A stretch of 12,475 bases of DNA from a virus (lineage: Duplodnaviria > Heunggongvirae > Uroviricota > Caudoviricetes): IMG/VR virus record IMGVR_UViG_2923286960_000002; one strand, given 5' to 3'. A program made the translations under genes and the position numbers. Positions 3,816 through 11,014 of this stretch are shown here, one piece after another; positions within the stretch are counted from its first letter, which is position 1, and each line of letters opens with the position of its first letter. Under the pieces are notes generated by a model. It saw only the letters and a list, made by a program, of their open reading frames with translations, was not told where the DNA came from and made no database searches.

Positions 3816-4115
3816 ATGAAACTTAAATATTCTGGCTTAACTGCCAGTGGCAACACTCACCCTAAATTTACGCGCGGTGATATTTACCGCGACCAGTACG
3901 GCGGCACGGTAATGATTAAGGGCGTGGAAGAACGGCGTGTAACCTACCGCCGTGAAGGTTACGAATATGATTGCGTGATGCCTGTTTATCAGTTCCGGCG
4001 TGATTTTTCTCTGGTACAGACCGCGCCGCATAACGTGCCCACCAGCAACGCCAGGGCACGGGCAAACATCCAGAAGCTGAAAACCATGATTAACGGATTC
4101 AGGGGTAAAAAATGA
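3816..4115 (+). CDS. Hypothetical protein (99 aa), possibly a conserved enterobacterial prophage small protein
   Basis: Motif GDIYRDQYGGTVMIKGVEERRVTYRREGYEYDC; stop overlaps the start of the replication gene (ATGA at 4112-4115). Confidence 0.5.
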   Translation: MKLKYSGLTASGNTHPKFTRGDIYRDQYGGTVMIKGVEERRVTYRREGYEYDCVMPVYQFRRDFSLVQTAPHNVPTSNARARANIQKLKTMINGFRGKK

Positions 4116-5866
4116 AACTGGCACCGAACGTAAAACAGCAGTCACGCGGCATAAAACACAAAGGAACAGAAGTCATTATTTTTGCGGGTAGTGATGCCTG
4201 GGCACACGCGAAACAATGGCAGGAACATGATGCGCGTATGGCCGGAGATAATGAGCCTCCTGTGTGGCTTGGGGAGCAGCAGTTATCAGAACTGGATAAG
4301 CTGCAAATTGTGCCGGAAGGCAGAAAATCCGTGCGCATATTCAGGGCCGGATATCTTGCGCCAGTAATGATAAAGGCGATTGGCCAGAAGCTGGCGGCGG
4401 CAGGCGTACAGGATGCAAATTTTTACCCTGATGGTATGCACGGTCAGAAGGTGGAGAACTGGCGCGAATATCTGGCCCGTGAGCGCCAGAATCTTTCTGA
4501 TGGTCTGGTCATTGAGCTTCCGGTAAAGCAAAAGGCGCAACTTTCGCAGATGGCGGACAGTGAGCGCGCGCAGCTGCTTGCCGATCGCTTTGATGGCGTT
4601 TGCGTACATCCTGAAAGTGAAATCGTTCACGTATGGCGCGGCGGGGTATGGTGTCCGGTCAGCACAATGGAGCTTAGCCGCGAAATGGTGGCGATCTATT
4701 CAGAGCACAGGGCCACTTTCAGCAAGCGCGTAATCAATAACGCCGTGGAAGCGTTAAAAGTTATTGCCGAACCAATGGGCGAGCCGTCCGGCGATTTGCT
4801 GCCGTTCGCCAATGGTGCGCTTGACCTGAAAACGGGGGAATTTTCCCCGCACACGCCGGAGAACTGGATCACCACGCACAACGGCATTGAGTACACGCCA
4901 CCAGCACCCGGGGAGAACATCCGCGATAACGCGCCAAACTTTCATAAATGGCTTGAGCACGCAGCCGGAAAAGACCCGCGCAAGATGATGCGTATATGTG
5001 CCGCGCTGTACATGATTATGGCGAACCGGTACGACTGGCAGATGTTTATTGAGGCCACCGGAGACGGCGGGAGCGGTAAAAGTACATTCACACACATAGC
5101 CAGCCTTCTGGCAGGGAAACAGAACACGGTAAGCGCTGAAATGACATCGCTTGATGATGCTGGTGGACGTGCGCAGGTTGTCGGGAGTCGTCTTATCGTC
5201 CTGGCTGACCAGCCGAAATATACAGGCGAAGGAACGGGCATCAAGAAAATCACAGGCGGCGACCCCGTGGAAGTTAACCCGAAATATGAAAAGCGTTTCA
5301 CGGCGGTAATCAGGGCGGTGGTGCTGGCGACCAACAACAACCCGATGATATTCACCGAACGGGCCGGAGGTGTGGCACGTCGTCGCGTGATTTTCCGTTT
5401 CGACAATATCGTCAGTGAGGCCGACAAAGACAGGGAGCTACCGGAAAAGATTGCGGCTGAAATCCCTGTGATTATCCGCCGATTACTGGCGAACTTTTCC
5501 GCCCCTGAAAAGGCACGGGCTTTACTCATTGAACAGCGTGACGGTGATGAAGCACTGGCGATAAAGCAGCAAACGGATCCGGTTATTGAGTTTTGCCAGT
5601 TCCTGAATTTTCTGGAGGAAGCGCGCGGCCTGATGATGGGGGGCGGTGGCGATTCAGTGAAGTACACGACCAGGAACAGCCTTTACCGCGTCTATCTGGC
5701 GTTTATGGCATACGCAGGCAGGAGCAAACCGCTAAACGTAAATGACTTTGGCAAGGCTATGAAGCCAGCCGCGAAAGTTTACGGACATGAATATATTACG
5801 CGGAAAGTTAAGGGAGTAACGCAGACTAACGCAATAACAACAGACGATTGCGACGCGTTTTTATAA
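4112..5866 (+). CDS. Replication initiator/helicase, P4 alpha C-terminal-like (D5_N + SF3 helicase); PICI Pri-Rep-like
   Basis: 584 aa; Walker A GDGGSGKST near aa 315 followed by a hydrophobic strand ending LIVLAD; overall resemblance to the phage/plasmid primase P4-family C-terminal domain. No TOPRIM or AEP primase motif recognised by eye in the N-terminal 300 aa. Confidence 0.88.
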   Translation: MKLAPNVKQQSRGIKHKGTEVIIFAGSDAWAHAKQWQEHDARMAGDNEPPVWLGEQQLSELDKLQIVPEGRKSVRIFRAGYLAPVMIKAIGQKLAAAGVQDANFYPDGMHGQKVENWREYLARERQNLSDGLVIELPVKQKAQLSQMADSERAQLLADRFDGVCVHPESEIVHVWRGGVWCPVSTMELSREMVAIYSEHRATFSKRVINNAVEALKVIAEPMGEPSGDLLPFANGALDLKTGEFSPHTPENWITTHNGIEYTPPAPGENIRDNAPNFHKWLEHAAGKDPRKMMRICAALYMIMANRYDWQMFIEATGDGGSGKSTFTHIASLLAGKQNTVSAEMTSLDDAGGRAQVVGSRLIVLADQPKYTGEGTGIKKITGGDPVEVNPKYEKRFTAVIRAVVLATNNNPMIFTERAGGVARRRVIFRFDNIVSEADKDRELPEKIAAEIPVIIRRLLANFSAPEKARALLIEQRDGDEALAIKQQTDPVIEFCQFLNFLEEARGLMMGGGGDSVKYTTRNSLYRVYLAFMAYAGRSKPLNVNDFGKAMKPAAKVYGHEYITRKVKGVTQTNAITTDDCDAFL

Positions 5867-6154: not shown

Positions 6155-6412
6155 ATGCGCACATCAGGAAAACTTAATAATCAGAAGAAGCAGCATAACC
6201 GCGCCATTGACCTTACAGAGCACTGGCTGAGAGTGGCGATAAAAATCATCGACCGCAACACGGGGGAAGGATACGCGAAAGCACATCCCGACCTGATAAG
6301 CGCATTCATGACCACGGCGGCGGCAAACTTTGCCACGCTGACAGAACGGGAGATTGCCGAAGCGGAACAGGTAACAACCATCAACGTTAAAACCGGAGAG
6401 GTGGAATCATGA
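6155..6412 (+). CDS. Hypothetical protein (85 aa)
   Basis: Strong SD GAGGGGG upstream; stop overlaps the SSB-like start (ATGA at 6409-6412). Confidence 0.5.
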   Translation: MRTSGKLNNQKKQHNRAIDLTEHWLRVAIKIIDRNTGEGYAKAHPDLISAFMTTAAANFATLTEREIAEAEQVTTINVKTGEVES

Positions 6413-6831
6413 CAGCACAGATAGCAGCTTACGGGCGGCTGGTGGACGACCCGCAGGTAAAACAGACCAGCAAGGGCACACCAATGACGCTGGCACGTAT
6501 GGCGGTCCCCCTTCCGTGCAGCCAGGCAGATGACGGAACGGCGACGATGTGGTTATCCGTCCTGGCATTTGGCAGACAGGCCGAAGCACTGGAAAGGCAC
6601 CGCAAGGGTGAACTCCTGAGCGTGGCGGGTAACATGCAGATCAGCCAGTGGACTGGGCAGAACTGAGAAACGCGGCAGGGCTGGCAGGTTATCGCAGACA
6701 GTGTAATCAGTGCGCGAACGGCGCGACTGGGCGGCAAAAAAGGTCAACAGGGCCAGGCTACTGACGCGCTGAACAGGGCAAAACAACAGGCGGGGAATGA
6801 TGATCCGTACGGGGATAACATACCGTTTTAA
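6409..6831 (+). pseudogene. ssb: SSB-like OB-fold protein interrupted by a single in-frame TGA (6664-6666); nonsense mutation, readthrough or sequencing error
   Basis: N-terminal 85 aa align to the SSB OB fold (YGRLVDDPQVKQTSKG...WLSVLAFGRQAEALERHRKGELLSVAGNMQISQWTGQN). The same frame continues after the TGA for 54 codons and ends in the SSB acidic tip ...DDPYGDNIPF. The TGA sits where SSB has a conserved Gly codon. Confidence 0.7.
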
Positions 6832-6846
6832 GCGACGAGTGACAGA

Positions 6847-6869
6847 AGCCGGAGCAATCCGGCTTTTTT
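6847..6869 (+). terminator. Rho-independent terminator
   Basis: Stem agccgga/tccggct, loop gcaa, followed by a T run. Confidence 0.6.
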
Positions 6870-6917
6870 ACGGGTCCTCCTGGCGGGGTGGGCCTGAACA
6901 CGGGGCGGGAGGCGCGG
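6869..6917 (+). other. Degenerate cos-like sequence, paralogous to the cos at 9311-9360
   Basis: tacgggtcctcctgg...acggggcgggaggcgcgg parallels tacgggtcctttccgg...acggggcggcgacctcgcgg, but the cohesive-end core is altered. Confidence 0.45.
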
Positions 6918-7044
6918 AAAAAAGCGCATTTTTGTGATTTTATCGTCATCATCATCATGAGCGTAATTTATTGTTTTTAATTGTTTTGATGCAAAAAAGA
7001 TGATGGTTATGGTTAATTTTTGTTCGACATCTTTGCAGGCAGAT

Positions 7045-7085
7045 AAAAAAGCCCGATAAGGTCAGAGGTGGCTTATCGGGCTTTT
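7045..7085. terminator. Bidirectional hairpin terminator
   Basis: Perfect 10-bp stem gcccgataag/cttatcgggc with 11-nt loop, A run upstream and T run downstream. Confidence 0.5.
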
Positions 7086-7161
7086 GCATATGAGGCTTTT
7101 TGGTGCACTGACACACATGATCGGGATAATCATTTCATAATTTGCAACACAACTCAATATC

Positions 7162-7211
7162 ATTGCACAAAATGCAATCATGATTATAATCAGAGCTGGA
7201 TGAACATCCAG
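7162..7211 (+). promoter_or_regulatory. Head-operon promoter with overlapping palindromes
   Basis: -35 TTGCAC (7163-7168), 16 nt spacer, perfect -10 TATAAT (7185-7190); palindrome ATTGCAcaaaaTGCAAT (7162-7178) over the -35 and perfect 16-bp palindrome CTGGATGAACATCCAG (7196-7211) near +1. Confidence 0.5.
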
Positions 7212-7246
7212 TTATGATTTTTTAAGTCGAAGAGGAATTTCTTACT

Positions 7247-7453
7247 ATGGCTGAAGAGAAAAAAGGCGGTGTTTCGGTGTACATAAGCCCCGAAATCGTG
7301 GAGGTGCTCAAGCAGCGCCACAAAAAAAACTATGAGGCTGGCGTGGCGGCTGGACTGGATCCGCTGATGACGCCGGAGCCGTCGATAGGTTCACTTGTAC
7401 GCTCTTATTTACTTGCGGCGCTTGGGATGCATAAAAATTATGGGGGTGAATAA
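7247..7453 (+). CDS. Hypothetical protein (68 aa), first gene of the head operon
   Basis: SD GAGGA upstream; stop overlaps the capsid gene start (TAATG); no recognisable family by eye. Confidence 0.5.
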   Translation: MAEEKKGGVSVYISPEIVEVLKQRHKKNYEAGVAAGLDPLMTPEPSIGSLVRSYLLAALGMHKNYGGE

Positions 7454-8508
7454 TGGCAGGAAAAGCAACGGCACTTAACACTAACCAGCTTTTCATGTAC
7501 CTGAATCGCGGGGATATTGCGGATTTTAAATTCAGCCCTCTGTTTACCACGCTGTTTTTCCCGAACGTGGCGACATTCAGCACGCAAAACATCATGCTGG
7601 ATACCCTGGACATTGAAGAAGTCACCATGTCGGCGTTTTGTTCGCCTATGGTGGGTAGCCAGGTTCAGCGCGATAAAGGGTACGAAACCAGCACGATTAA
7701 ACCTGGCTACATGAAGCCAAAGCACGAAATCGATCCAACGAAAACCATCATGCGCATGGCTGGAGAAGATCCGGCACAGCTTAACGACCCTACCTATCGC
7801 CGTATGCGCCTGATTACTGGCAATATGCGCCGCCAGATAAACGCCATAAAAGCGCGCGTGGAATGGCTGGCGGTAAATGCGGTAACGACCGGAAAAAACA
7901 TCATTGAGGGCGAAGGCATAGAGCGCTATGAAATCGACTGGAAGATCCCAAGTAAAAATATCGCCAGACAGGGACATGGCAAAAAGTGGTCAGAGGCAGA
8001 TAAGGAAACACACGATCCAATCTATGACATTGAGCTATACGCAGATCAGGCAGGTTGCCCCGCAAACGTCATGATTATGGGCGTTGATGTATGGCGCATG
8101 TTACGCAGCTTTAAAAAATTCCGTGAACTGTACGATCTCTCCCGTGGTTCAGAATCCGCCGCAGAGCTGGCATGTAAAAACCTGGGCGAAGTGGTGAGCT
8201 TTAAAGGCTATCTTGGTGATCTGGCCCTTATCGTCTATTCCGGCAAATACACTGACAGCGACGGCACAGAAAAATATTTCCTTGAGCCTGATTTGCTTGT
8301 CCTGGGCAACACCAACAATAAAGGGCTGGTGGCCTATGGTGCGATTATGGATCAGGACGCAGTAAGAACGGGGGCAACGCAAAACATGTACTACCCGAAA
8401 AACTGGATTGAGGACGGAGATCCGGCGATTGAGTACGTGCAGACGCACAGCGCACCGCAGCCGGTTCCGGCAGATATTCGCAAATTTGTTACTGTCAAAA
8501 TTGCTTAA
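7453..8508 (+). CDS. Major capsid protein, lambda gpE family
   Basis: 351 aa; conserved blocks shared with lambda gpE as recalled: FKFSPLF..LFF, PGYMKPKHE, EDPAQLNDPTYRR, WSEADKETHDP, VSFKGYLGD.A.IVYSG.Y, LVLGNT, YPKNW...GDPA, SAP. Confidence 0.92.
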   Translation: MAGKATALNTNQLFMYLNRGDIADFKFSPLFTTLFFPNVATFSTQNIMLDTLDIEEVTMSAFCSPMVGSQVQRDKGYETSTIKPGYMKPKHEIDPTKTIMRMAGEDPAQLNDPTYRRMRLITGNMRRQINAIKARVEWLAVNAVTTGKNIIEGEGIERYEIDWKIPSKNIARQGHGKKWSEADKETHDPIYDIELYADQAGCPANVMIMGVDVWRMLRSFKKFRELYDLSRGSESAAELACKNLGEVVSFKGYLGDLALIVYSGKYTDSDGTEKYFLEPDLLVLGNTNNKGLVAYGAIMDQDAVRTGATQNMYYPKNWIEDGDPAIEYVQTHSAPQPVPADIRKFVTVKIA

Positions 8509-8519
8509 CGGGGGATTCT

Positions 8520-8855
8520 ATGGACACTCCATACATTGAGTTATTTGCAGGCAGTCAGCAGGTCGCCACGACGCTGGTACATTTTGCCGCTGATGCTGGC
8601 GTTATTCAGGAATTTACCCCGCTGATGCTGGCGGACAATGGCGAGTTTAAGCCGTGGGATGGTCAGGAATCTGGCAAGGCTGTTTATCTGACTTCGTATC
8701 CTGTGGACACGTCAAAGCAGAAATCAGCACAGTGTTACAAGACGGGGATATTCAATATTGCCGCCGTTAACTGGCCTGAGAGCGTCGACACCGATGCGAA
8801 AAAATGCGCCGCCTTTGCGGGTTCCGGCGTATCCGTTCAGCCGCTGGCCCGATAA
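8520..8855 (+). CDS. Head decoration protein, lambda gpD-like
   Basis: 111 aa; TPLMLADNGEFKPWDG..., YKTGIFNIAAVNWPESVDTDAKKCAAFAGSGVSV parallels lambda gpD TPLMLDTSSRKLVAWDG..., YKSGTF.YEDVLWPEA..DETKKRTAFAGTAISIV. Confidence 0.85.
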   Translation: MDTPYIELFAGSQQVATTLVHFAADAGVIQEFTPLMLADNGEFKPWDGQESGKAVYLTSYPVDTSKQKSAQCYKTGIFNIAAVNWPESVDTDAKKCAAFAGSGVSVQPLAR

Positions 8856-8867
8856 GCAGGGGGAACG

Positions 8868-9281
8868 ATGGCAACGAATGAAAGCATCATGACGCTACCG
8901 CTGGCGAGTAAATTTAAAGCCGAAGCGCGGGCAATGGCTGACAGAGGTTTATCAACCTATGAGGCCGTATATCAACTAAACAAACTGGAAGAGCAGGACA
9001 AGCCGCGCGCTGATGCGATTATGGCGCTTCATGAGCATAAAGACTATCAGCCGCTGTTACGTGCAATGGCAAACGTGCCATGTATTAGCGTCGATAATGC
9101 TCGTGAAATCCTGAACATGACCATAGAGCAGGAGCGCCCAAAGGTTGCACCAGAGCTTACCGCAGCCTTTGAAAACTTTATGGACATGCACAGCCCGCAA
9201 GCCGTATCAGCTGGCATGGCATACGATGGCAGAAACCAGGGCGATGACGGCGACATCGATCGCATACTGAAAACCATCTGA
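8868..9281 (+). CDS. Hypothetical protein (137 aa), last gene of the head operon
   Basis: Good SD and protein-like composition; position analogous to lambda FI but no similarity recognised by eye. Confidence 0.5.
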   Translation: MATNESIMTLPLASKFKAEARAMADRGLSTYEAVYQLNKLEEQDKPRADAIMALHEHKDYQPLLRAMANVPCISVDNAREILNMTIEQERPKVAPELTAAFENFMDMHSPQAVSAGMAYDGRNQGDDGDIDRILKTI

Positions 9282-9286
9282 GACAA

Positions 9287-9311
9287 GGCCGGAGAAATCC
9301 GGCTTTTTTTT
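9287..9311 (+). terminator. Rho-independent terminator
   Basis: Stem gccgga/tccggc with gaaa loop followed by T8; near-identical to the hairpin at 6847-6869. Confidence 0.6.
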
Positions 9312-9392
9312 ACGGGTCCTTTCCGGCATATGGACCCGTTACGGGGCGGCGACCTCGCGGGTTTTCGCTATTTATGACGTTTTTCCGTGAAG
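9311..9392 (+). other. Lambda-type cos site (cos1): cosQ/cosN plus a short cosB-like segment
   Basis: tacgggtcctttccgg...ccgttacg | GGGCGGCGACCT (9344-9355) CGCGGGTTTTCGCTATTTATGA matches the lambda right-end/left-end junction as recalled, with the 12-nt cohesive end identical; followed by an R3-like cgtttttccgtg. Lies ~90 bp upstream of the Nu1-like gene. Confidence 0.85.
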
Positions 9393-9444: not shown

Positions 9445-9885
9445 ATGATTGATAAAGCTTGTTTTGTAAGTCAGCAGGAAATAGCTGAACATTTCAAGGT
9501 TAACAGAACCACTATTCGCGCATGGACCAAACAGGGGATGCCGTATCTTAATGCGGATCGCGGAAAGTCTGGCGGTTATCACATCGGGCATACATTGCTT
9601 TGGTCTTCAGGTAAAAGCCGTCTTGAGGCCATCAGATATCACGTAGAAACCAGTGTGCTGGAAAAAATTATGTTTGCCAGGCTGCTTTCATCTGAGCGTG
9701 ACGAGTACTCCAGTGAAGAAACAGAACATAGATTTGATGAAGGTTTACAGATTTACGGCTACTCACCGGAAGAAGTGAGCAAAGCGCGAAATAAAATGGC
9801 CGGCTTTCTGGCTGGGTGGCGTCATGCCGTAAGCGTTCGCCGTGCCAGCATGGAACAATCAGTCGTTACAGAACAGCAAAGTTAA
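9445..9885 (+). CDS. Nu1-like HTH protein: small terminase subunit or TerS-mimicking packaging redirector (Rpp-like)
   Basis: 146 aa; N-terminus FVSQQEIAEHFKVNRTTIRAWTKQGMPYL..GKSGGYHIGHTLLW resembles the lambda Nu1 winged-HTH DNA-binding domain (QLADIFGASIRTIQNWQEQGMPVL...); SD AAGGT upstream. Confidence 0.75.
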   Translation: MIDKACFVSQQEIAEHFKVNRTTIRAWTKQGMPYLNADRGKSGGYHIGHTLLWSSGKSRLEAIRYHVETSVLEKIMFARLLSSERDEYSSEETEHRFDEGLQIYGYSPEEVSKARNKMAGFLAGWRHAVSVRRASMEQSVVTEQQS

Positions 9886-10011: not shown

Positions 10012-10079
10012 TCTTTATTTTTACTTAGTTATCAAATGGATATGACAAACAATTAAACAACAACCTCCCTCTAAAAAAG

Positions 10080-10150
10080 CTCATAAATAGCGAAAAACCG
10101 CGAGGTCGCCGCCCCGTAACGGGCCATAATTCCAGGAAGGACCCGACGAC
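10080..10150 (-). other. Second lambda-type cos site (cos2), inverted relative to cos1
   Basis: Reverse complement reads cgggtccttcctgg...ggcccgttacg GGGCGGCGACCT CGCGGTTTTTCGCTATTTATGAG (12-mer at complement of 10103-10114), near-identical to cos1 over ~45 bp. Confidence 0.8.
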
Positions 10151-10460: not shown

Positions 10461-10628
10461 CTGGTTGATATTTTCGAAATTCGCCAGCGGCGAACATCGG
10501 GGAAACCAGCCTAACCCGTTGATATTTTCGGGAACCTCAAATTGAGGAGGTCGGAAACATAACCCGTCATATTCTGGATGCTGATAATTACCACGCAGCC
10601 CATTAAGGCCTAACCCGTTGATTCTTCC
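10458..10628. repeat. Four direct repeats with TAACCCGTTGAT-like core at ~50-bp spacing
   Basis: taactggttgatattttcg (10458), taacccgttgatattttcg (10512), taacccgtcatattctgg (10560), taacccgttgattcttcc (10611). Confidence 0.55.
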
Positions 10629-10633
10629 ACAAT

Positions 10634-10798
10634 CCCCCATTGGGGGAGGCTGGGCGGCCTGCTGTGGGCTTTTCCACCATTGGTGGAAAGGCGCACATCT
10701 GGATCATCATTACGGTGATCAAGGGTATGTAAAACCCACCAGCCTGATTGACATTTAACCGGAAAAAAGCCAGGTAGCCCCATTATGGGGATCCCCAT
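10634..10798. repeat. Cluster of short GC-rich palindromes
   Basis: CCCCCATTGGGGG (10634-10646), TTCCACCATTGGTGGAA (10672-10688), CCCCATTATGGGG (10778-10790), ATGGGGATCCCCAT (10785-10798). Confidence 0.4.
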
Positions 10799-11014
10799 AT
10801 CGACATTAACGCCCCTCATGAATTGGCGCGCTTCCCCCTGGAAAGATGACCCGCCTGTATATTTCTTGTGTCTATTTGTTCCACGTTGTTTCATACAGTG
10901 CAACGATCGGTGTAGTTAATGGTGTAGTCAATTTGCGATTTTTAGCACTTTTTGCAGTGCGAATCATTTAATTAAATCAATGGCTTGCCTTGATGTAGTG
11001 ATAAAAGGGCATAT

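Follow-up and report, generated by a model that had tools for sequence, protein, structure and literature searches.

A coat, decoration and scaffold-like gene cassette in the late operon of an EcCICFT073-type PICI at the roxA-phoQ site of Escherichia coli NCTC86

The viral record IMGVR_UViG_2923286960_000002 contains a stretch of 12,475 nucleotides (the window) with an operon at 7247-9281 that was read in the initial annotation, from the letters alone, as the head operon of an island encoding a lambda gpE-like coat protein and a gpD-like decoration protein without portal, protease or large terminase. The locus raises the question of what such a partial head module does for the element that carries it. 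The answer proposed at that stage was capsid protein substitution, i.e. island-specific small capsids assembled around the portal, protease and terminase of a helper phage. Here, we re-examined the identity of the element, the relationships of its late proteins, the inheritance of their genes and the published genetics of its closest relative.

The window is 100% identical to the chromosome of E. coli NCTC86, where the element forms an island of 10,954 bp bounded by an exact 31-bp direct repeat. One copy of the repeat, the attR core, lies at 10898-10928 on the plus strand, and the identical 31 bp of attL are situated 27 bp upstream of the window start. Head genes of the same element just outside the window would have been expected for an ordinary prophage; what adjoins the island are the chromosomal genes roxA and phoQ, and with only 10,954 bp between the att repeats an ordinary lambdoid prophage was rejected. 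Among the ORFs and annotations of the 10,954-bp island, there is no gene for a portal, a protease or a large terminase and none for tail or lysis functions, and in Pfam and PHROG scans none of the ten ORFs between 3816 and 10460 matched a portal, head protease, head-tail connector or large terminase. The lack of portal, protease and large terminase stated earlier is thus borne out by ORFs, annotations and att boundaries alike. At its left end, the island encodes a tyrosine integrase (1-1230; PF00589 and Arm-DNA-bind_3), followed by an AlpA-family regulator (1596-1784; PF05930 Phage_AlpA, E 3e-18) and a primase/replicase (4112-5866; D5_N, DUF5906 and Pox_D5; phrog_864 DNA primase, E 4e-175). 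Together with a coat gene downstream of the replication module, Rpp and cos sites, and the small, att-bounded size, these are the features of a phage-inducible chromosomal island (PICI), for which about 10-20 kb, att repeats and the absence of tail and lysis genes were taken as the size criterion. An SSB gene with an internal stop and a BRO-N gene are pseudogenes in the NCTC86 island, and an Rfam scan of the entire window returned zero matches. Sequence comparison identifies the region as the late 'capsid' operon of a Gram-negative PICI of the EcCICFT073 type at the roxA-phoQ site of E. coli NCTC86.

The operon comprises four ORFs on the plus strand, at 7247-7453 (68 aa), 7453-8508 (351 aa), 8520-8855 (111 aa) and 8868-9281 (137 aa). 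Coordinates and gene calls had been given correctly, as had the gene order E then D, which in lambda is Nu3-D-E. Upstream of the operon, a hairpin with flanking A/T runs (7040..7092, plus strand; 21-nt arms, 86% complementary) that is conserved in CFT073 probably acts as a terminator insulating the operon from the replication genes. The promoter proposed at 7163..7190 (plus strand), read from the sequence as TTGCAC-16 nt-TATAAT, stands as far as its perfect -10 element and its conserved surroundings are concerned; its -35 element has only 3/6 matches, which is why the site is missing from the list of a consensus scan. The regulatory block around it holds the dyad ATTGCA-N5-TGCAAT and is conserved in an alignment of islands that share no more than 64-68% identity in their coat proteins. 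Between the -10 element and the ribosome-binding site, the palindrome AGCTGGATG-AA-CATCCAGTT with a T-run (7194..7213, plus strand) was flagged as terminator-like. It is kept in CFT073 and in the related Salmonella island L012, is not found in the related island L007, and could be an operator or an attenuator. The intrinsic terminator proposed at the end of the operon was confirmed (9285..9311, plus strand; 9-bp stem at 9285-9306 with 5 G-C pairs, then a T-run), and its sequence is repeated at 6848-6878.

The 351-aa product of 7453..8508 is a major capsid protein of the lambda gpE family and the homologue of c1499 from EcCICFT073 (95.2% identity). It matches Pfam PF03864 (Phage_cap_E) over its full length (E 4.6e-50, profile positions 16-328/329) as well as phrog_29 (E 6e-107) and shares 44% identity with lambda gpE over 327 aa, in agreement with the gpE-like assignment made before. 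The protein is homologous to gpE over its whole length, and truncations or insertions are not obvious. It retains 31/46 of the columns conserved across the gpE family, and its variability from site to site follows that of phage coats (Spearman 0.48), so that it still looks assembly-competent. Its best match among 50,697 phage records has 46.5% identity. Coats of satellites are 50-100% identical among themselves and reach no more than 47% identity with any coat of a phage, and they have fixed residues of their own at near-invariant positions of the family (C63, Q173, Q336, H332, S69 and L139). They form a separate clade, a lineage confined to satellites, and this observation is new here. The 111-aa product of 8520..8855 is the homologue of c1500 (99.1% identity) and a head decoration (cement) protein of the gpD/SHP family. 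Its assignment as gpD-like likewise held, with a match to PF02924 (lambda head decoration protein D) above the curated cut-off (E 1.3e-17, 64.5 bits vs 29.1), a match to phrog_49 (E 2.6e-27) and identities of 36% to gpD and 44% to SHP of phage 21.

The two remaining proteins of the operon had been put forward as candidates for a scaffold or a size-determination factor, and NCBIfam gave zero matches for all four operon proteins. The candidacy stands for the 137-aa protein (8868..9281), the homologue of c1501 (93% identity), which is homologous to the C-terminal repeats and tail of the scaffold domain in phage 21 gp5/gp6 and lambda C/Nu3. It matches the far end of the head maturation protease profile phrog_53 (positions 495-567/583, E 1.7e-10) and phage 21 gp6, the Nu3 analogue, both in BLASTP (39% identity, E 6e-12) and in hhalign (97% probability, E 2.7e-11). 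With lambda Nu3, hhalign gave a weak match (57% probability, E 1e-4) and direct BLASTP none (E 3.4). The Nu3 relationship is visible only via phage 21 gp6 and profile methods. The internal two-repeat structure is modest in the NCTC86 protein (z 2.8), clear in that of L007 (z 4.4) and absent in that of the related island L013. The AF2 model is all-helical with a pLDDT of 57 and therefore too uncertain for a fold search. The gene stands alone behind the decoration gene instead of in frame within a protease gene, and the island is devoid of an S49 protease. By homology, the 137-aa protein is a short version of the phage 21 gp6/lambda Nu3 scaffold, a 'mini-Nu3', and this identification is new here. 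Its tail, FENFMDMHSPQAV, resembles FEHFMANHSPAAV, the tail common to protease and scaffold of phage 21, a likeness which suggests that a helper protease could be recruited.

Nothing was found that would point to a scaffold role of the 68-aa protein (orf68, 7247..7453, plus strand), whose gene ends in a stop codon overlapping the start codon of the coat gene (TAATG). It belongs to the unknown-function family phrog_3255 (E 8.5e-46) and had no Pfam match. Its AF2 model (pLDDT 71) shows an extended segment and two helices, and a Foldseek search of this model against the PDB returned nothing below E 1.6; a ribbon-helix-helix fold is only a guess. Identity to c1498 is 68%, and orf68 lies outside the co-inherited unit described next, remaining with the island backbone when the capsid genes are swapped.

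This unit emerged from a comparison of L013 with L007. The DNA of the two islands is 98-100% identical as far as the start codon of the coat gene and once more from a point just beyond the scaffold gene, whereas across coat, cement and scaffold it is only 36-75% identical, with protein identities of 62%, 52% and 31%, respectively. Coat, decoration and scaffold genes are thus exchanged between islands as one three-gene cassette, which is likewise a new observation. The cassette type is present in 598/5426 complete E. coli genomes, and in each of the eight additional islands inspected, which come from E. coli, Salmonella, Serratia and a single metagenome contig, both the coat and the decoration gene have their full length. 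The dN/dS values (coat, 0.11-0.15; cement protein, 0.10-0.12; Rpp, 0.15-0.19) point to purifying selection on satellite coats as strong as on Rpp, the role of which is proven; this finding, too, is new. With values far below 1, decay of the cassette was refuted.

These data bear on the idea that the cassette is a spare copy backing up interrupted helper late genes such as E and is baggage or a decaying remnant at chromosomal sites. Close relatives do sit inside lambdoid late genes, L009 in prophage gene E and L013 between Nu1 and W of a lambdoid prophage, a back-up function has been discussed in the literature (PMC10111431), and the SSB and BRO-N pseudogenes of the island would fit a decaying element. 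However, the coat of L013 shares 43% identity with that of the prophage in which it is embedded, the coats of such embedded islands have only 43-47% identity to that of the interrupted prophage and are therefore no recent copies, and excision restores the helper gene anyway. The strong purifying selection, the integrity of coat and decoration genes across several genera and many chromosomal sites, and the rearranged order E-D-scaffold also speak against this idea, and we regard it as very improbable. A recent acquisition of the coat from a helper phage was rejected on the 43-47% identity to the coat of the interrupted prophage and on the 45% identity of the island coat to that of the phage-21-like prophage resident in CFT073.

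Downstream of the operon, the protein encoded at 9445..9885 (plus strand), which had been called Nu1-like, turned out to be Rpp (redirecting phage packaging) of the RppA type. It matches RppC (PDB 6hlk, E 3.3e-31) and is 97.2% identical to c1503/RppA of EcCICFT073, and its identity to the N-terminal HTH of Nu1 is 33%. In a PADLOC scan, the only match was a weak HTH match for Rpp. The gene is flanked by two cos regions, one at 9313..9384 on the plus strand with the exact lambda cosN 12-mer GGGCGGCGACCT at 9344-9355, the other inverted relative to it at 10074..10145 on the minus strand with the exact 12-mer at 10103-10114; 0.04 exact matches are expected by chance. The two regions are the arms of a 72-nt inverted repeat. 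In EcCICFT073, both cos sites are functional (PMC6092414), and Rpp with two lambda-type cos sites next to the operon corresponds to the published packaging-redirection system. Four island units amount to 43.8 kb, which fits the phage-sized packaged DNA reported for that island.

The published genetics of EcCICFT073 addresses much of what was initially proposed. Its capsid genes were reported in 2018 (PMC6092414), and induction, packaging and high-frequency transfer by a helper have been demonstrated by experiment only for EcCICFT073 (PMC6092414). A capsid gene is found in 21/29 reference Gram-negative PICIs (PMC10111431) and is one of the five core components in the PICI model of SatelliteFinder (PMC10085698). 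The premise that classical E. coli PICIs use helper capsid proteins is at odds with EcCICFT073 itself, which carries c1498-c1501 with products of 68, 351, 111 and 137 aa. The coat and decoration genes of the NCTC86 island are real but already known, near-identical genes having been described in 2018; as submitted, the finding re-discovers a published hallmark of a model satellite and adds nothing new.

The same work speaks to the proposal that the island substitutes its own coat for that of the helper and forms small, island-sized capsids around the helper portal, thereby favouring itself and shutting out the helper genome, as for Ccm or PmCI172. A monomer has 10,954 bp, ~23% of the lambda genome, and would fit a far smaller shell, a short stand-alone scaffold is present, and PmCI172, for which small heads were seen, encodes a coat homologue (PMC6092414). 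However, DNA packaged by EcCICFT073, the coat of which is 95% identical, was all phage-sized with no band of island-monomer size (PMC6092414), packaging into normal-size capsids is also stated in the review by Dokland (PMC6893505), and the coat has the full length of a gpE homologue, with neither truncation nor insertion being obvious. Deletion of c1499 or c1500 left transfer by resident CFT073 prophages and interference with lambda unchanged, the island with c1499 replaced by cat was transferred at 1e5-1e6 by phage 4 and phage 80, an island with a tetA marker in c1501 still transferred, and the authors found no phenotype for c1499 (PMC6092414). Literature searches turned up no later functional study of c1499-c1501. 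[quoted passage not shown] For lambda, phage 80 and CFT073 phage 4, the small-capsid reading has in large part been refuted, and we consider it improbable overall.

The cassette might instead serve interference or defence against other phages, either by poisoning or titrating lambdoid assembly (mixed lattices, sequestration of portal, protease or gpD) or as a decoy for capsid sensing. Interference functions are common in this region of PICIs (PMC6739421), replacement of the whole cassette between otherwise identical islands resembles the turnover of a specificity locus, and the residues fixed in the satellite clade at near-invariant positions would suit such a role. On the other hand, c1503 was the only gene that inhibited lambda when single genes were cloned (it blocks lambda and phage 80 but not HK97; PMC6739421), the deletions failed to relieve lambda interference, and none of the four operon proteins matches a PADLOC defence model. 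A poison or decoy would also leave the retention of cognate cement and scaffold genes unexplained. An interference function is therefore doubtful.

The reading that we prefer, to which we assign a probability of about 40%, is that the cassette is a non-essential shell kit owned by the satellite that builds helper-sized proheads on the helper portal and can be dispensed with in laboratory crosses. The action of a cement protein is confined to the expanded, DNA-filled lattice and that of a scaffold to prohead assembly; we infer from the retention of both beside a matching coat that real shells are made. Coat, cement and mini-scaffold would be co-adapted, and upon helper induction they would assemble proheads of helper size, not small ones, on the helper portal. 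The helper protease would mature these proheads, and helper TerS/TerL, retargeted by Rpp, would fill them with concatemers of about four island units. As the kit would run in parallel with the proheads of the helper, it would be dispensable in laboratory crosses, and the benefit may lie in an independent supply of shells or in a better fit to particular helpers. Several observations count against this proposal: deletions of c1499 or c1500, c1499::cat and c1501::tetA were without phenotype, single cloned genes other than c1503 did not inhibit lambda (PMC6739421), and the island contains the SSB and BRO-N pseudogenes. Furthermore, the scaffold-like gene is lacking in L012, and an AlpA-domain gene takes its place in L008-L011.

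A wider form of this idea, which we hold to be possible though unlikely, is that 'classical' Gram-negative PICIs in general are partial capsid-formers which make chimeric heads from satellite coat on a stolen helper portal, the lack of a phenotype in the laboratory resulting from redundancy with helper proheads. Cassette swapping would then reflect matching to helper portal and protease or escape from capsid-sensing immunity. Whichever reading applies, a coat gene that is present in most Gram-negative PICIs (21/29) and under strong purifying selection, yet for which a phenotype was not found, poses a puzzle. It becomes more testable with the recognition of an exchangeable coat-cement-mini-Nu3 unit, a satellite-confined coat lineage and a cement protein with a role only on filled shells.

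Among known systems, the island is closest to EcCICFT073 (Fillol-Salom et al., 2018, ISME J, PMC6092414; Fillol-Salom et al., 2019, Mol Cell, PMC6739421), with which it shares the roxA-phoQ site, the order of the genes c1498-c1503, products of 68, 351, 111 and 137 aa followed by Rpp, and two cos sites. Identities are 95% for the coat, 99% for the cement protein, 93% for the 137-aa protein and 97% for RppA. It differs in orf68 (only 68% identical), in the length of Rpp (146 aa vs 144 aa in EcCICFT073), in the absence of perC and in the presence of the SSB and BRO-N pseudogenes. The likeness to lambda Nu3-D-E and phage 21 gp6-shp-gp7 extends to the coat (44-45%), the cement protein (36-44%) and the C-terminal repeats and tail of the scaffold (39%, gp6). 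In contrast to these phages, the order is reversed to E-D-scaffold, the scaffold is stand-alone and not the in-frame C-terminal product of a protease gene, portal, protease, terminase, W, FI and FII are lacking, and the coat clade is at most 47% identical to phage coats.

Like the capsid-forming PICIs, e.g. EcCIEDL933 (Alqurainy et al., bioRxiv 10.1101/2022.09.08.507074), the island encodes its own coat, and its int, alpA and rep modules are broadly of the type found there, but capsid-forming PICIs encode portal, protease, connectors, HNH, TerS and TerL and make small capsids, and those genes are absent here. Ccm of SaPIbov5 and PmCI172 offer the parallel of a coat homologue in a satellite that otherwise uses the head machinery of its helper. 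Ccm redirects helper capsids to small size, whereas EcCICFT073 DNA is phage-sized and its coat gene has no known phenotype; for PmCI172, an involvement of the coat homologue in the small heads is only suspected (PMC6092414). A cognate cement or Nu3-like scaffold beside the coat gene of Ccm or PmCI172 systems is not mentioned in PMC6092414 or PMC6893505.

Sid and Psu of P4 resemble the products of this operon in being scaffold-like and decoration proteins encoded by a satellite and acting on capsids. Both act on the gpN shells of the helper, and to our knowledge P4 is devoid of a coat gene; the Sid, Psu and Delta families gave no match among the late-operon proteins in Pfam and PHROG. With the helper-embedded PICIs (11capE; Mageeney et al., 2023, PMC10111431), of which L009 and L013 are examples, the NCTC86 island shares both the satellite family and the coat-decoration pair. 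Unlike them, it resides at a chromosomal site and not inside a prophage late gene.

The initial annotation had drawn a late operon (window 7247-9281) of four open reading frames, and gene calling returned all four at the same coordinates, encoding orf68 (68 aa) and proteins of 351, 111 and 137 aa. Its reading of the 351-aa product (window 7453-8508) as a homologue of lambda gpE was borne out, as the protein is a full-length member of that family (PF03864, E 4.6e-50; phrog_29, E 6e-107) with 44% identity to lambda gpE across 327 residues. Likewise, the 111-aa product belongs to the gpD/SHP decoration family (PF02924, E 1.3e-17), with 36% identity to gpD and 44% to SHP of phage 21, and the gene order, E then D, is indeed the opposite of that in lambda. 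The expected terminator was found at 9285-9311. The proposed promoter reads TTGCAC-16 nt-TATAAT, with a perfect -10 and a poor -35 element, and this block is conserved among islands whose coats are only 64-68% identical. The weak -35 element lies within a conserved dyad, ATTGCA-N5-TGCAAT, which suggests that the operon promoter may depend on an activator. The terminator plus the next 15 bases (GCCGGAGnAATCCGGCTTTTTT...TTTTTTACGGGTCCT) is present twice, at 6848-6878 and 9288-9320, and a degenerate cosN-like stretch, ACGGGGCGGGAGGCGCGG, follows the upstream copy. A lost third cos site or a past recombination event may account for this duplication.

The window matches the E. coli NCTC86 chromosome with 100% identity, and in the annotated record the element sits between roxA and phoQ, both chromosomal genes. 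Its ends are marked by an exact direct repeat of 31 bp, of which attL lies 27 bp before the window begins and attR at window 10898-10928, giving an island unit of 10,954 bp. Reading from the left end, the first genes are those for a tyrosine integrase and an AlpA-family regulator. Several small ORFs follow, one of them a truncated BRO-N pseudogene (2041-2568), then genes for a DUF4222 protein and a D5-type primase, an 85-aa ORF, an SSB gene (6409-6831) with an internal TGA stop at 6664-6666, the late operon, rpp between two inverted cos regions and, last, a 93-aa ORF. Between this last ORF and attR lies a 42-nt direct repeat (10509-10550 and 10608-10649; 71% identity, spacing 99 nt). Portal, protease, large terminase, tail and lysis genes are all absent from the island by both the ORF calls and the annotated record, which rules out an ordinary prophage. 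The SSB and BRO-N genes are thus damaged, and no such damage affects the late operon, rpp or either cos site; replication of the NCTC86 island may be partly impaired.

The protein initially described as Nu1-like is instead an Rpp protein, matching the RppC crystal structure with an E value of 3e-31. Its gene is flanked by cos regions at 9313-9384 and 10074-10145, which are 72-nt inverted repeats with 86% complementarity. The two cosN sites, both exact lambda 12-mers (9344-9355, plus strand; 10103-10114, minus strand), are therefore oppositely oriented. For EcCICFT073-type PICIs, the published mechanism is that Rpp and cos redirect packaging.

We found that the 137-aa protein (window 8868-9281), here called the mini-scaffold, is homologous to the scaffold domain common to the lambdoid head protease and scaffold, in a short form with a gene of its own, a relationship added by the present analysis. 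It matches the C-terminal end of a PHROG head-maturation-protease profile (positions 495-567 of 583) and shares 39% identity (E 6e-12) with phage 21 gp6, the Nu3 analogue, over the last 'Tri box' and the tail of gp6. The family profile hit gp6 with 97% probability and, more weakly, the equivalent region of lambda Nu3 (57%, E 1e-4), and relatives in other islands can be aligned, almost end to end, with the C-terminal ~125 residues of a helper S49 protease. Two repeat copies are probably present (self-alignment z-score 2.8 in the window protein and 4.4 in that of the related island L007), and 93-aa alleles (P0084, P0088, P0090; alignment A1), in which residues ~22-65, one repeat unit, are missing, are consistent with recombination between the internal repeats. 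The AF2 model is helical and of low confidence, as is usual for scaffolds. For orf68, AF2 gave an extended segment and two helices, and a fold search with this model returned no match. Hence, of the two small proteins put forward earlier as scaffold candidates, only the 137-aa protein gains support, from its gp6, Nu3 and protease C-terminal homology. The NCBI name of the 137-aa family (P0060-P0097), 'phage head-tail connector protein', seems to have been carried over from 'preconnector', an old label of phage 21 gp5/gp6 (M81255); the proteins are homologous to the scaffold/protease C-terminal domain rather than to a connector.

The satellite coats form a separate clade. The best match to the island coat among 50,697 phage records had 46.5% identity, and among the 1.84 billion cluster representatives of a further library, no more than two full-length clusters exceeded 47% identity. 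All seven homologues of 52-86% identity whose context was inspected lie in PICI-type islands, making nine loci in all, and the inspected islands, from E. coli, Salmonella and Serratia, differ in replication modules, attachment sites and packaging proteins. Satellite coats are mutually 50-100% identical and only 39-47% identical to lambda E, phage 21 gp7, the embedding prophage's coat and the coat of the phage-21-like prophage of CFT073. The dN/dS values (coat 0.11-0.15, decoration 0.10-0.12, Rpp 0.15-0.19) show purifying selection on the coat and decoration genes. The coat keeps 31 of 46 family-conserved columns, and per-site variability in satellite and phage coats is correlated (Spearman 0.48). 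Six residues fixed in the clade, C63, S69, L139, Q173, H332 and Q336, occupy sites normally held by V, G, M, L, Q and L (at least 80% conserved in 108 diverse gpE-family representatives) and are candidate specificity determinants. In a 55%-identity subclade, P0030 (463 aa, on a 3.2-kb contig) has both the PF03864 coat and the PF02924 decoration domain in one ORF, which may be a natural fusion or sequencing read-through.

The most informative result on the evolution of the module came from two related islands, L013 (9500-12100) and L007 (9500-12170). Upstream of the coat start codon, and once more beginning just past the scaffold gene, the two share 98-100% DNA identity; across the coat, decoration and scaffold genes this drops to only 36-75%. 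The three genes have therefore been replaced as one whole cassette, and orf68 is part of the backbone. The window and CFT073 present the converse, a diverged orf68 and a conserved coat. In the more distant subclade L008-L011, the mini-scaffold position holds a 114-145 aa Phage_AlpA/excisionase-domain protein (phrog_2790), and in L012 it holds no gene. The Serratia locus L010 also encodes a lambda-type tail assembly protein (phrog_32). At a Salmonella locus (L011 1-21032, GCA_005980655.1), a PICI encoding a gpE-type coat and a decoration protein lies amid P2-like tail genes, with baseplate J/I and tail fibre genes upstream and tube, gpU, gpX and gpD genes downstream. As a P2-like phage would have a capsid of the gpN type, unrelated to gpE, the helper may be a phage other than the embedding prophage, or the coat may work independently of the helper coat type. 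That the cassette is a spare copy or remnant tied to helper-embedded life is the least probable reading we considered. None of the genes for coat, cement and scaffold is disrupted, and all three are under selection and inherited together.

CFT073 has this island too, at an identical site and with its genes in the same order. Protein identities are 95.2% for the coat (c1499), 99.1% for decoration (c1500), 93.4% for the mini-scaffold (c1501), 67.6% for orf68 (c1498) and 97.2% for Rpp (c1503/RppA). The products of c1498 to c1501 were already listed with 68, 351, 111 and 137 aa, c1499 as a putative capsid protein and c1500 as a head decoration protein (Fillol-Salom et al., 2018, supplement; PMC6092414), and 'capsid morphogenesis' is one of the five core PICI components in SatelliteFinder (PMC10085698). 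It was therefore wrong to assume that classical E. coli PICIs are devoid of genes of this kind. Nor did a required coat forming small capsids find support in this near-identical allele: the c1499::cat island transferred at 1e5 with resident helper phage 4, ~1e6 with phage 80 and ~1e3 with lambda, the tetA marker on which that study relied throughout lies inside c1501, and packaged EcCICFT073 DNA was all phage-sized (PMC6092414). Dokland's review also describes EcCICFT073 as having a coat homologue, yet normal-size capsids (PMC6893505). Small capsids might form with helpers other than those tested, which we consider improbable. Deletion of c1499 or c1500 neither relieved interference with lambda nor affected resident-prophage transfer (PMC6092414), and of the genes downstream of the origin, cloned one by one, only c1503 inhibited lambda (PMC6739421). 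That the cassette acts against other phages by interference or as a decoy is unlikely, if somewhat less so than small capsids. Our literature searches found no later paper giving c1499-c1501 a function.

We consider it most likely, at a probability of about 40%, that the cassette forms helper-complemented, helper-sized shells of island coat that are redundant with helper proheads; the probability left over by all these readings goes to an explanation not yet conceived. Cement proteins function only on an expanded, filled lattice and scaffolds only in prohead assembly. As both are kept beside a matching coat, we infer that shells of island coat would really be made and filled. Portal and protease would be supplied by the helper, because the island has none of its own, and the helper protease might be recruited through the mini-scaffold tail, which resembles the tail common to the phage 21 protease and scaffold. 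Given a full-length gpE homologue, phage-sized packaged DNA of the model island and a total of 43.8 kb for four island units, such shells would most likely be helper-sized, and the absent knock-out phenotype would follow from their redundancy with helper proheads.

A plausible natural helper is the lambdoid prophage beside icd in CFT073 (L015, 1424500-1436000), ~35 kb from the island, which has a phage-21-like head module and the exact cosN 12-mer, with a coat only 45% identical to that of the island. The CFT073 island differs from that of NCTC86 in carrying a perC-family regulator gene between SSB and the operon, where the window has ~300 bp of unrelated sequence (6738-7044). The capsid and decoration genes are confirmed and represent an already known feature, and small island-specific capsids as a new intermediate class are contradicted by the published genetics of EcCICFT073, a near-identical element.
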